Shown: positions 24,406 through 27,566, counted from the first letter of the stretch. The stretch is 64,000 bases of DNA from Candidatus Latescibacterota bacterium (GCA_965203175.1 OZ241867.1:1568001-1632000); one strand, 5' to 3'. Program-made: numbers and translations. The notes: a model not told the origin generated them from the letters alone.

Positions 24406-27400
24406 CATTGAATCTCGACGTACCTTGGCATAGGGAGTCCTTTGACCTTTTCGTCCACCAGCGACTGCCCCAGCTTTTGGGCGAGCGCTTGCCGCTGGCC
24501 GATTATCAAGTCGAACAACAGGACTCCTATACTTTTTCCATTAAACTGAGCTTGGGACTCGGCGATGCCCCGGTCGAGGTTGAGTACCGAGATTTGCCTC
24601 GGCCCGACCGCGATGGTCTTTTCCACATTGAAGGCAACTACCGGGTCGTGGTCCCCTATCCCGACCGGCGCGAACTCGCTCAAGCGCGGATTCTGTGCGT
24701 GGGCGAGCAGCTCTACGACTTTATTGACCAAAGATTGGAAGCGGCTCCTGAGCAATTGGCTTGGGATGGCGACTTAGTGCGGAGTTGGCTGCCGCTAGAC
24801 GCTTGGATGCGCGACTTCCACTTGGAGGCAACTTCCCAGTACCTCCAGGCGACCAACTGGCTTGACCGCTATACTCATCTGCGGCGGCTGACTTTGATCC
24901 CCATCGTTGACGAGCCTTTTGTCGACCAAGACGTTTTCCCCGACAGCCAATACGGCCTAGTGTGCCCCCACTGCACTCCCGAGGGACCCAATATCGGCCG
25001 AGTGCTAGAAGTAGCCCGCGGTGCCCGCATCCGCGACGGCAAGCTCGAACGGATCGACGAAGCGCCCGACAGCATCTTGGGTTTTTCGGCCTCCATGGTG
25101 CCCTTTCTCGAACACGACGATACCAATCGCGCTCTGATGGGCATCAATATGATGCGCCAGTGGACGAGCGCCGCCGATACCGCGGCACCGGTCCACGCCA
25201 CGGGTTGGTTCCGCCAGCAGCACGATCAGCGCTTGGCCTCCAAGGGCCACAAACCCGAACCAGCCCTAGTGCAGACGGGATACGAGCCGGAGGCCGCCGA
25301 CTTTTGGGGCGGGTACAATCTGCTGACCGCCTTCGTCATGTGGGATGGGGACACGTTTGAGGATGGCTTAGTCATTAGCGAGTCGGCCGCGGCGCGGATG
25401 GACTTTCCCGCCGCAGTGGGGGTGGGCGACAAACTAAGCAACCGCCACGGTGCCAAAGGAGTGGTGGCGCGCATCCTGCCCGACGCCGACATGCCGCAGT
25501 TGCCCGACGGTACGTCGGTAGAGCTCATTTTGAGTCCGACCAGTATGGTCTCGCGGCTCAACTTCGGCCAGCAGCGCGAGGCGGTCATGGGTCGCATTGC
25601 CCGAGCCGAGGGGACTCCGGCGGTGGTGCCGCCTTTCCAAGCACCCAGCGAAAAAGTGTTGAAAGCGCGTCTGGTTGAGGCGGGACTGCCCGAAGACGGC
25701 ATGGAGCAACTGACCCTCAAAGGCGCAAAGCTGCCCTATCGCAGTACCGTGGGTTGGGTGTACTGGGGTCTTCTGGCGGCCCACACTGCGGCCGAGCACT
25801 TGGAAACCGCGGTGATAGGAGTCGGCGGACCAGCGCTCGACATGATGGCCTACGGAGCTTTGAGCGAGGCCGGGGCCGTAGCCAATATCCACGCTTTGTT
25901 CAACACGGCCGCGGCTGAGCGGCCCGACGCCGATGCGCTAGGCCAGCGTTTGGCTTCTGACCCAATATCCCCGTCTCCGCCTCCGTCTCCACGCTTTGCT
26001 CTATTGCAGCAGTTGTTGGGTATGGCCGGGATACGGGCCGAGTTGGCGGGCGGGGCATTGCGCTTTGCCTTTGCCGAGCCGAAGGGATTGACCTTGGCTC
26101 GCCCCGTGTCGCACCCGTGGGCACCGGGACGCCAAGTAGGGACGGTGGGAGATCCCGGCGCTTTGCCTGCGGGGATCGAGTTCGACCCGATTCGAGGCTG
26201 CTACGAGGATTTGGTCGAAGCTAATACGCGTTTGCAGCGCATCATCGATAGCGAAGCGCCCGAGGCTCTGGTCGGGCCAGCAGTGGCACAGGTGACCCAA
26301 CGGGTGGAGGATTTTTTTATCGCGTTGTTGCGCCCGGAGCACCTCCACTTTCAAGCAAGACCGCTGTTTAGCGGCCGGGCCGCGCTTGTCTCTGGTTTTG
26401 AGTTGGAGCTCGACCAAGTGGGCCTACCCGAGGAGATGGCCTGGAATTTGTTCGGGCCTCAGGTAGAGCGGGAGATAGGTCGCGCCGAGGAAGTGGCGCA
26501 GCGTTCGCCCCGAGCGGCTAAGGTTCTGGACGCGATCATGGAGCGCTCGTGGGTGCTGCTGTACAGCGCCCAGCGGGTGCTAGTTGACGATGGCCCGGCG
26601 TCCACCGCAGTGGTGGCCTTTCGTCCGCAGCGTTTGGCCGGGGCCGCAGTGCGCGTCCATCCGCGCATTTGCCGACTGATGGAGCTAGATTTCGACGGCG
26701 ATCAGATCGAGGTGTTTTTGCCCCTCACTGAGGAAGCCCAGGCCGAAGCCGAAACTGCGCTGTCGGTGGCCGGGCACATACAGCGCGACGCGGATATATG
26801 GCGCTACGTGACCGACAACTACCACGGCATGATATGGGGCTTGGCGCAGCTTTGCCGCACGGAGGAAGGCCGCGCCGAAGTGGAACGGCTGACCGGAGTG
26901 GCCGTGGATGGCAGTCGGCTGTTCGTCAAGCACGACCTCAACCGCTTATTAGCTCAGGTGCTGCAGCGCGAGGGCCTAGAGCGAGCACTGGAGGTACTCG
27001 ACCAGCTAACGCGGCGCGGCTTTGAGGTCTGCAAGCAGTCGGGGGCCTCCTTCAATCCCTTCCTCGGTTCGAGCAAGGAGTGGCCTGAGCAACCCGAGGA
27101 AGCCGATTGGGACGAGTGGCAAATGTACAGCGACGAGTTAGTGGCAGCTTTCTACCAGCAGGCCGATTTCGACGACAACGACTTGGGGCCTTTGGCTCTG
27201 TTGTCGCTGTCGGGGGCGCGGGGCAACCAACAGCAGTTGATCCAATACGTGGGCGGCGGTCTGCTCTATCGGGAAGATGGCAGTCTATTCGCTCAGCGCG
27301 GTTGTTGGCGCGACGGCCTGTCGGTAGAGGAAACCAAGGTGCGGGCCCCGCGTGCCTTATGGTGGGGTCTGGCCGCCGCCAACCAGCGCTGGATTGAGGC

Positions 27401-27566
27401 GCAGGAAGCGGCCCAACAGCCCGTCCGTGCCGATTACCACGTTTTGGGCCGGGCCGCCAAGGCCGCGCAGCCGGGCGTAGTCTTTGCTAGAGCGGCTGAG
27501 CGCGGAGAGACCGATCCGCTGACCAGCCTATTCAGCCGGCTCTTTGCAGGGCTACCAGCGAACTAG
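24402..27566 (+). CDS. Miniature single-chain RNA polymerase beta-beta' (RpoB-RpoC)-like fusion protein
   Basis: Ordered RpoB motifs (GLFHIEG..RVVV, THLRR, CP..TPEGPNIG, PFLEHDD.NRALMG.NM.RQ, FEDG, GDKL..RHG.KG, SRLN.GQ) followed by RpoC motifs (SGRA, QVGLP..MA, DFDGDQ, SGARG). ATGA overlap with the sigma gene; GGAGGAG RBS. Confidence 0.9.
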   Translation: MTLNLDVPWHRESFDLFVHQRLPQLLGERLPLADYQVEQQDSYTFSIKLSLGLGDAPVEVEYRDLPRPDRDGLFHIEGNYRVVVPYPDRRELAQARILCVGEQLYDFIDQRLEAAPEQLAWDGDLVRSWLPLDAWMRDFHLEATSQYLQATNWLDRYTHLRRLTLIPIVDEPFVDQDVFPDSQYGLVCPHCTPEGPNIGRVLEVARGARIRDGKLERIDEAPDSILGFSASMVPFLEHDDTNRALMGINMMRQWTSAADTAAPVHATGWFRQQHDQRLASKGHKPEPALVQTGYEPEAADFWGGYNLLTAFVMWDGDTFEDGLVISESAAARMDFPAAVGVGDKLSNRHGAKGVVARILPDADMPQLPDGTSVELILSPTSMVSRLNFGQQREAVMGRIARAEGTPAVVPPFQAPSEKVLKARLVEAGLPEDGMEQLTLKGAKLPYRSTVGWVYWGLLAAHTAAEHLETAVIGVGGPALDMMAYGALSEAGAVANIHALFNTAAAERPDADALGQRLASDPISPSPPPSPRFALLQQLLGMAGIRAELAGGALRFAFAEPKGLTLARPVSHPWAPGRQVGTVGDPGALPAGIEFDPIRGCYEDLVEANTRLQRIIDSEAPEALVGPAVAQVTQRVEDFFIALLRPEHLHFQARPLFSGRAALVSGFELELDQVGLPEEMAWNLFGPQVEREIGRAEEVAQRSPRAAKVLDAIMERSWVLLYSAQRVLVDDGPASTAVVAFRPQRLAGAAVRVHPRICRLMELDFDGDQIEVFLPLTEEAQAEAETALSVAGHIQRDADIWRYVTDNYHGMIWGLAQLCRTEEGRAEVERLTGVAVDGSRLFVKHDLNRLLAQVLQREGLERALEVLDQLTRRGFEVCKQSGASFNPFLGSSKEWPEQPEEADWDEWQMYSDELVAAFYQQADFDDNDLGPLALLSLSGARGNQQQLIQYVGGGLLYREDGSLFAQRGCWRDGLSVEETKVRAPRALWWGLAAANQRWIEAQEAAQQPVRADYHVLGRAAKAAQPGVVFARAAERGETDPLTSLFSRLFAGLPAN

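Follow-up and report, generated by a model that had tools for sequence, protein, structure and literature searches.

A stretch of 64,000 nucleotides from the genome of a Candidatus Latescibacterota bacterium (GCA_965203175.1, OZ241867.1:1568001-1632000), here called the window, encodes a protein of 1054 residues in which a reduced beta and a reduced beta' subunit of RNA polymerase (RNAP) are joined in one chain, directly downstream of a gene for a sigma factor of the extracytoplasmic function (ECF) type. The protein, here called mini-RNAP, belongs to an undescribed family; what was known before are the beta/beta' cores and the ECF sigma factors, and our literature search found no publication on the family. 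We suggest, with a probability of about one half, that it is a sigma-dependent single-chain polymerase with a remodelled sugar pocket, which may be active with an altered handling of its substrates. The upstream sigma gene is the strongest clue to the function of the polymerase.

Two RNAP subunits reduced and fused

The gene of the mini-RNAP is an open frame at positions 24,402 to 27,566 on the plus strand, the strand of all features below unless another is given; domain matches, sequence matches to solved structures, an AlphaFold2 model, Foldseek and VIA-align all bear on its identity. Residues 1 to about 530 form the reduced beta and residues about 560 to 1054 the reduced beta'. The Pfam domains Rpb2_3 (residues 146-210), Rpb2_6 (340-455, 1.2e-31) and Rpb1_2 (736-787, 8.1e-12) are found in this one chain. 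Among solved structures, its sequence matches best bacterial beta (2.6e-42) and, with query residues 653-826, beta' (3.5e-21). The NCBIfam equivalog cut-offs are not reached, with scores of 160 against 801.15 for rpoB, 93 against 963.5 for rpoC and 158.9 against 5372 for the fused rpoBC. The assignment of the protein to the mini-RNAP family is near certain.

E. coli positions are taken from an alignment of the K-12 rpoB-rpoC products to a hidden Markov model (HMM) built from the mini-RNAP family. This HMM covers E. coli beta 475-580, 650-707, 790-821, 1054-1148 and 1177-1341, as well as beta' 76-131 (weakly), 267-516, 586-649 and 705-793. The DFDGD motif of the active centre falls within the beta' 267-516 alignment, which has an E-value of 3.8e-43. 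From this pattern of coverage, the C-terminus of beta is fused to a beta' that begins near region A. Absent are the beta lobes (about 150-470, where the alignment jumps from 147 to 475), the flap (about 822-1053, a jump from 821 to 1054), the stretch of beta' between the clamp helices and switch 2, where the rudder lies, and beta' from the bridge helix to its last 30 residues or so.

Among the retained parts, residues 146-210 (24,837-25,031; PF04565, 8.3e-07) correspond to the beta fork around E. coli 513-580, and the equivalents of Q513, H526, R529 and P564 are conserved there. A pair of long helices that run antiparallel (residues 592-616 and 621-642; 26,175-26,327) aligns to the beta' clamp helices (E. 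coli 267-309), as judged from the HMM alignment and the secondary structure of the AlphaFold2 model. At the end of the chain, the block GVVFARAAERGETDPLTSLFSRLFAG (27,474-27,551) resembles in hhalign the extreme C-terminus of beta' (E. coli 1329-1354).

The AlphaFold2 model, built with an alignment of 137 sequences, has a mean predicted local distance difference test score (pLDDT) of 93.9 and a predicted template modelling score of 0.91. When it is searched with Foldseek, the top 50 matches are all beta or beta' chains of RNAP. In VIA-align, model residues 1 to about 470-560 align to second-largest RNAP subunits with Z-scores of 28-31 and a root-mean-square deviation of 2.2-4.8 A over 426-525 residues; as the rows of this comparison are second-largest subunits only, the beta' half gets no independent mapping from it. 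Pfam gives no match in the first 130 residues; based on VIA-align, they too belong to beta, as its N-terminal part.

The family alignment consists of 173 full-length members, of which 124 are less than 70% identical to the window protein (the distant members) and 49 are closer. At the position of the flap, all 173 have only 21-42 residues against 249 in E. coli, and after the equivalent of beta' A779 only 63-85 against 628. Thus, the loss of the trigger loop and the flap is a trait of the whole family. In the window protein just 50 residues follow the helix at 975-1004 in the model, in agreement with a first, sequence-only reading of this DNA, which recognised no trigger loop. That reading also had the chain jump from a partial bridge helix to the C-terminal block of beta'. 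The best local match of the tail is indeed to that block, in E. coli (1329-1354) and at the same place in the organism's own beta', although this match is weak alone (hhalign E-value 0.13-0.14). The bridge helix looks partial in the sequence, but the model has it as a full-length helix of 30 residues.

The same genome carries a normal rpoB (a frame of 1271 residues) and rpoC (1368 residues) about 2.3 Mb away on one contig of 6.58 Mb, so the mini-RNAP is a second copy, at about 40% of the combined length. Its order of beta before beta' is that of the natural full-length fusions (NCBIfam NF007172/NF011417). Shared with RpoB and RpoC are both double-psi barrels, the metal and phosphate ligands including DFDGD and the lysines of the GDK...NKG motif, the fork, the bridge helix and the clamp helices. 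The lobes, the flap, the rudder/lid region, the trigger loop and the jaw are lost.

An ECF sigma factor as a probable partner

The sigma gene at 23,806-24,405 encodes 199 residues from the ATG at 23,806 and contains regions 2 and 4 only (Sigma70_r2, 5.8e-15; Sigma70_r4_2, 2.1e-12; TIGR02937 score 98.5 against a cut-off of 42.9). The mechanically called frame is longer (23,626-24,405), but its 5' part is probably not coding. The true start is probably ATG 23,806, as distant homologues align only from about residue 61, the gene calls of several relatives have 199 residues, and indels not divisible by three occur between 23,728 and 23,805 in close relatives (loci L010 and L022). The stop codon of sigma and the start codon of the polymerase overlap as ATGA. 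This sigma gene had been missed in the sequence-only reading.

This linkage is conserved. In 28 of the 33 loci searched with tblastn, the sigma gene immediately precedes the polymerase; among the five exceptions, three have no upstream DNA (L027, L035 and L037), one is a canonical rpoB/C match (L038) and one truly lacks sigma (L023). In seven distant loci, no neighbours are conserved except sigma and polymerase. Among 168 Latescibacterota genomes, 61 have both genes, five the polymerase alone, one sigma alone and 101 neither, where related genomes are not independent and no statistical test is given.

A promoter-like element of the ECF type, TGAAC-N18-GTC, lies at 23,760-23,785, 20 nucleotides before the sigma start codon. 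The same element with an equal spacing of 18 nucleotides is present upstream of sigma in all seven distant loci with upstream DNA (L028, L029, L030, L031, L033, L034 and L036), where it is the sole plus-strand match, or one of two, per locus of 2.5-15 kb. It looks like a classical autoregulated ECF promoter, for which transcription is predicted to begin some 6-8 nucleotides beyond 23,785. ECF sigma factors have the same sigma-2 plus sigma-4 architecture as the upstream gene product, with GAAC-type -35 and GTC-type -10 elements. In contrast to the usual ECF sigma gene, the one described here adjoins no anti-sigma gene, and its conserved partner is the polymerase homologue. No mention of such a context was found when the ECF reclassification paper was searched in its main text and one text supplement.

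A block at 23,673-23,701, which precedes the ECF-type promoter, is conserved in most close relatives. It consists of an extended -10-like sequence, TGGTAAGAT (23,673-23,681), and a 15-nucleotide palindrome, ACTCG-ACTAG-CGAGT (23,687-23,701), and is perhaps another promoter, of the housekeeping type, together with its operator.

Some relatives depart from the two-gene arrangement. Within one genus of the same class, sigma and mini-polymerase are 1.3-2 kb apart. The insert is a same-strand ABC exporter of 597 residues (ABC_membrane and ABC_tran; L040 3848-5641, minus strand) in one locus and a protein of 396 residues without a Pfam match (L043 1160-2350, plus strand) in another. In the genomes of two close relatives (G146, locus L024, and G136, locus L032), deletions remove the 3' part of sigma and the 5' part of the polymerase, of which only residues 89-1053 and 751-1054 remain; here the operon has decayed.

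The main docking site of sigma region 2 on RNAP is formed by the beta' clamp helices. We suggest that the mini-polymerase binds its cognate ECF sigma through these helices and that sigma would direct it to TGAAC-N18-GTC promoters, the sole one identified being that of its own two-gene operon. A complex predicted from polymerase residues 471-1054 and sigma residues 61-259 of the longer frame reaches an ipSAE of 0.51, while the best of three controls has 0.00; the runs share at least 32% of their contacts and the partner has a pLDDT of at least 66. The mark for this score is reached by 58 of 80 solved complexes and two of 110 mismatched pairs, and the range up to 0.60 holds seven of the 80 as well as both passing mismatches. 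As complexes of sigma with beta' are already solved, the pass may reflect likeness only, and the prediction lends weak support to sigma binding.

Two clamp-helix columns (P0001 positions 607 and 627) correspond to E. coli R275 and E295, which are important for the binding of sigma-70. They are Ala in 76 and 78 of the 124 distant members, while R278 and R281 are kept. This difference might restrict the mini-polymerase to its own sigma.

Several observations weigh against a sigma-dependent polymerase. First, the beta flap, which anchors sigma region 4, is absent, and with the flap gone the reading of a -35 element by this enzyme instead of the host core is hard to explain. Secondly, one polymerase 87% identical to that of the window (L023, the same as G143 and L044) is intact at 1047 residues and has no cognate sigma either upstream or genome-wide (E<=1e-40); the DNA upstream of it is unrelated. 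Thirdly, the genome-wide count of TGAAC-N18-GTC is at the chance level (169 found, 176 expected from composition), so no regulon can be defined beyond the operon itself. The operon's own site is the top-scoring one genome-wide, but on an ad hoc score fitted to that site.

It can be asked whether sigma only regulates, through the host core RNAP on the autoregulated promoter, while the mini-polymerase works free of sigma on other substrates, RNA-templated or primer-making as in QDE-1-type enzymes. The loss of the flap together with a strict -35/-10 spacing typical of host-core ECF holoenzymes fits such a division, as do the intact polymerase without sigma, the genes that separate sigma and polymerase in some genomes and the modest outcome of the complex prediction. 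However, the pairing is near-obligate in the Latescibacterota genomes and holds across phyla, the two frames overlap at stop and start, and the coiled coil of the clamp helices is kept though most of the clamp is discarded. We consider this explanation fairly unlikely.

The active centre and a derived clade

Most members of the family keep the catalytic residues. In the 124 distant members, the metal-binding aspartates beta' D460, D462 and D464 are kept in 116, 121 and 118, the lysines beta K1065 and K1073 in 113 and 115, and beta R678, R1106 and H1237 in 121, 123 and 115, respectively. The family consensus is RAP...LMNADFDGDQ, with Arg at the R425 column in 105 of 124 and Asn, Asp or Glu at the N458 column in 76, 28 and 13. 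By this consensus and these counts, the family taken together resembles a ribonucleotide polymerase.

The window protein retains the catalytic set. E320-D321 (25,359-25,364) correspond to beta E813/D814; this pair is found in all 49 close members, and in the distant ones the Glu in 112 and the Asp in 118 of 124. The basic motif GDKLSNRHGAKG (25,425-25,460) contains K344 and K352, the equivalents of K1065 and K1073, while R678, R1106 and H1237 correspond to R243, R385 and H461. The aspartates D460, D462 and D464 are D763, D765 and D767. The sequence-only reading had placed an intact DFDGD at 26,688-26,702, and translation puts residues 763-767 at exactly this position, within MELDFDGDQ (26,679-26,705). 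It had also taken the triad and the beta lysines to be under selection, which is borne out by their retention here, their strong conservation in the 124 distant members and the ratio of nonsynonymous to synonymous substitutions (dN/dS) given below.

The residues that select the sugar are changed. This concerns the span 26,540-27,420, residues 713-1007, of the sequence-only reading, where a Glu in the place of N458 and the replacement of the R425 motif by YSAQRVL (26,562-26,582) were pointed out; in the HMM alignment to E. coli, E761 stands at N458 (E761-L762 and DFDGD, 26,682-26,702) and S722 at R425. The remodelled loop YSAQRVLVDDGP (26,562-26,597) takes the place of the (N)RAPxxx of the family and E. 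coli. It has R425 replaced by S722, P427 by Q724 and an additional insertion of eight residues. In the equivalent of the bridge helix (residues 975-1004, 27,324-27,413; GLSVEE at 27,315-27,332 and GLAAA at 27,366-27,380), R780 is replaced by L986. The model is at its least confident in residues 721-730 of the R425 loop (block pLDDT 67). R725 in this loop, which might reach the position of R425, is Glu or Asp in the remaining members with the loop, P0049 and P0051 apart.

Three residues can be contacted by the 2'-OH group of a nucleoside triphosphate (NTP) as it enters, namely beta' R425, N458 and Q929 of the trigger loop (Makinen 2021, PMC7862312), so the changed residues are indeed known ribose contacts, as had been stated from the sequence. 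According to that study, R425 is the major determinant against 2'-dNTPs, R425K lowers the selectivity 17-fold in binding and 25-fold in incorporation, and the effect of N458S is below 5-fold (PMC7862312). Eight residues, among them Rpb1 R446 and P448, are reported as common to all two-barrel RNAPs including the YonO-like and QDE-1-like ones (Ruprich-Robert & Thuriaux 2010, PMC2919709). Rpb1 R446 and P448 correspond to beta' R425 and P427. The universal contacts R425, P427 and N458 are thus S722, Q724 and E761 in the window protein, and by alignment all three known 2'-OH contacts are lost, two of them otherwise universal. With these contacts gone, sugar discrimination by the known mechanism would be gone too.

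The changes are confined to one part of the family. In 57 sequences RAP has given way to a rebuilt loop of greater length (Y-S/G-A/G-Q-...); none of them has the Arg, and at the N458 column they have Glu (56) or Asp (1). In a FastTree phylogeny, these and one more form a clade of 58 with a support of 1.0, in which the R780 column is Leu in all but one of the members checked. The tree was rooted on the beta plus beta' of E. coli and of the organism itself, with the close group thinned to one in six; its deep supports are approximate and several backbone supports low. In this tree the clade is nested 14 nodes from the root, amid lineages that carry R and N, and the selector changes are thus secondary. 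As they are conserved down to about 51% identity, they appear to be selected. The altered selectors that had been noticed from the sequence are therefore real, but they are specific to this clade and do not describe the family.

Furthermore, the polymerase gene is under purifying selection. Its frame is intact in 18 of 18 close loci, and dN/dS against these is 0.14-0.19 overall (18/18) and 0.05-0.43 in residues 713-775. The close group of 47 sequences with more than 84% identity retains the three aspartates, K352, R243, E320/D321 and R385, and of 21 residues with a catalytic role or a contact to nucleic acid, 17 do not vary in it, compared with 47% of all columns.

However, other observations speak against continued catalysis. 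Of the 11 members of the clade outside the close group, six have a broken aspartate triad: DFDGN in P0056, P0059, P0066 and P0070, SFDGD in P0060 and YFDGD in P0062. Six of the 11, largely the same ones, have V, T, R or Q instead of K1073. Outside the clade, a broken triad is found in only seven of 115. The clade thus tolerates the loss of catalysis, and the conservation of aspartates and lysines, which the sequence-only reading had proposed to check across homologues, holds family-wide but fails in part for the triad among these relatives. Moreover, DFDGD in 49 of 49 close relatives is weak evidence alone, because 47% of the columns are invariant in the group. The NTP pocket is also more acidic, minus two Arg and plus one Glu, which could simply cripple the binding of substrate.

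Because the aspartates vary in its nearest derived-clade relatives, a non-catalytic role is a live rival, and the main one. The derived clade would then act by binding, as a holder of sigma or a regulator at promoters or on other nucleic acids, with no need for catalysis. It could be a sigma sink that replaces the missing anti-sigma, a roadblock or a melting factor, and the triad of the window protein could be residual or serve in metal binding only. In line with this, the proteins with a broken triad are full-length, and the equivalents of R678, R1069, H1070, R1106, D814, D462, R731, Q513, H526 and R529 are kept in 11 of 11 non-close members. The clamp helices are retained and no anti-sigma gene is adjacent. 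A sister group of five members likewise lacks R425 and N458, and one of them has lost the whole motif. From these alignments, the remodelling of the sugar pocket accompanied a regime in which catalysis was dispensable while the binding of nucleic acid was kept. Against a pure binding role, the lineage of the window together with P0049 and P0051 has kept the three aspartates and K352 along a long branch (0.356), the catalytic or contact residues of the close group are more often invariant than its columns at large, and 1054 residues would be a costly holder of sigma. For the window protein, we regard a pure binding role as doubtful, though far from negligible.

Under the reading preferred here, that of an active polymerase, the ribose pocket would have been rebuilt in the derived clade by the longer loop in place of R425/P427, the Glu at N458 and the Leu at R780, while the Asp triad and the equivalents of E813/D814, K1065/K1073, R678, R1106 and H1237 remain. 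Templated nucleotidyl transfer would persist, but ribonucleotides would be told apart from deoxyribonucleotides less well or in another way, and the affinity for NTPs would probably be lower. Whether E761 and the longer loop provide a replacement discrimination or NTP binding is plainly impaired, the sequence does not decide.

Distribution, setting and relation to known polymerases

The family is large and unannotated, with members of about 1000-1075 residues in Latescibacterota, Poribacteria, Hydrogenedentes, Armatimonadota and Chloroflexota. Of 8000 candidates scored in a protein search, 568 match at E<=1e-3. The top 120 of these have 600-1077 residues and 43-97% identity, and the few source-named entries among these 120 are called hypothetical protein (Latescibacteria, Poribacteria, Hydrogenedentes, Gemmatimonadota). 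Of 1.84 billion cluster representatives, 347 match at E<=1e-30, and genome contigs add Chthonomonadales/Armatimonadia and one Dictyobacter (Chloroflexota). In the ESM Atlas, two clusters of the mini-RNAP type (73 and 135 members) are automatically named "DNA-directed RNA polymerase family protein" and "hypothetical protein". Close relatives of the locus come from Latescibacterota metagenome-assembled genomes, a few of them labelled Gemmatimonadota, and the DNA runs that contain the stretch are labelled mostly as sponge, coral or marine metagenomes.

Further ESM Atlas clusters of 1221-1787 residues, mostly "hypothetical", have Rpb2_6 and Rpb1_2 in one chain. Fused beta-beta' proteins of other sizes thus exist and are uncharacterised.

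The two-gene operon is flanked on both sides by PhyH-family dioxygenase genes on the opposite strand, at 22,671-23,627 and 27,580-28,428 (both minus). Other nearby genes encode oxidoreductases, a methyltransferase and a sugar-isomerase-like TIM barrel. The left-hand neighbour is common to the close relatives, whereas the distant loci keep only sigma and polymerase.

Contigs from four metatranscriptome runs (three studies) match pieces of the sigma and polymerase genes with 90-99% identity, and two of them span the junction between the genes (24,266-24,966 and 24,074-24,540). Carry-over of DNA is possible, one contig runs into the divergent neighbour, and strand and start are not shown; the contigs are only a hint that the operon is expressed.

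The distribution is patchy. Within the phylum the polymerase gene is found in 66 of 168 Latescibacterota genomes and in 21 of 30 other genomes of the window's genus, besides several other phyla. Together with the unconserved flanks of the distant loci, this could indicate a polymerase of a phage or mobile element, of the YonO or jumbo-phage type, that transcribes the genes of the element. However, the pair is surrounded by metabolic genes, with a PhyH dioxygenase gene on either side, and the protein is strongly similar to bacterial beta/beta', unlike YonO as it is described (PMC5467207). Neither the 50,697 phage records nor the 72,556 plasmid records contain a full-length relative, and the best matches there cover 46% and 44%, on ordinary rpoB-rpoC; no PADLOC defence family matches the polymerase; and a PHROG scan of it gave matches to beta/beta'-like families only. 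Such an origin is very unlikely.

Two weak PADLOC matches of sigma (E-value 0.003-0.005) were treated as chance.

A decaying paralogue without function is less credible still. Although the deletions across sigma and polymerase in two genomes (L024/G146 and L032/G136) show that decay occurs, the 18 intact close frames, the low dN/dS and the very confident fold speak against it for the window protein, as do, as a weak hint, the gene pieces in the contigs of four RNA libraries.

In the window, a stretch at 34,879-36,783 on the minus strand has an IrrE-like Peptidase_M78 gene (35,911-36,783) beside a frame of 339 residues without a Pfam match. The G+C content of the window dips at 16-22 kb and 34-42 kb and is 0.55 around this stretch against about 0.60-0.62, which may mark a mobile or stress-response island.

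Among known polymerases, YonO of the Bacillus subtilis prophage SPbeta comes close in design. It is a single chain of about 100 kDa with both barrels and, like the mini-RNAP, without trigger-loop homology (Forrest 2017, PMC5467207). By its description there, YonO shares few residues with multi-subunit RNAPs (msRNAPs), is encoded by a prophage and transcribes phage late genes, whereas the mini-RNAP family plainly derives from bacterial beta/beta' (2.6e-42), is encoded on the chromosome and comes paired with an ECF sigma. YonO is reported to be as efficient as msRNAP and to prefer NTPs strongly, with less accuracy and no RNA cleavage (PMC5467207). The slow or abortive synthesis considered in the sequence-only reading therefore does not follow from the missing trigger loop alone: the loop is absent in all 173 members, and YonO is fast and processive without it (PMC5467207). 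The universal Arg (Rpb1 R446), described as invariant even in the YonO-like proteins (PMC2919709), is lost in the window protein.

The archaeal family D polymerase, PolD, is a second comparison. Its DP2 subunit also has two barrels, no trigger loop and an altered sequence of the selectivity loop, or s-motif (PMC7708050). In PolD, the loop equivalent to RxPxLH is GLAPHT with an invariant PHT, and its His is reported as the steric gate that selects dNTPs (Zatopek 2020, PMC7708050). The loop of the window protein lacks a His and bears no similarity to it. The DP1 exonuclease is the partner of PolD, whereas no such partner is present for the window polymerase. PolD may thus serve as a precedent for the effect of a changed loop, but not as a sign of relatedness.

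A bolder version of the active enzyme can be speculated upon. The polymerase of 115 kDa and its sigma of 22 kDa would be a self-contained second transcription engine with a positive-feedback promoter, and in the sponge-associated clade it would no longer be specific for ribonucleotides, making DNA or mixed polymers or using unusual nucleotides from a promoter defined by sigma. We think this improbable. If the loss of ribo-specificity were true, it would be a natural parallel to the transition from RNAP to PolD.

If the mini-RNAP is active and depends on sigma, no smaller enzyme that works with a bacterial sigma would be known. Promoter-directed initiation could then do without several parts of the 400-kDa core, namely the flap, the lobes, the trigger loop, alpha and omega, and the pair would be a compact orthogonal transcription module of use to structural and synthetic biology. 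In its derived clade, the family offers a natural experiment with the supposedly invariant Rpb1 R446/P448 (beta' R425/P427), in which either sugar selection has been solved anew or a polymerase has become a binding protein. Either outcome would inform how RNA and DNA polymerases that share the two-barrel fold have diverged.

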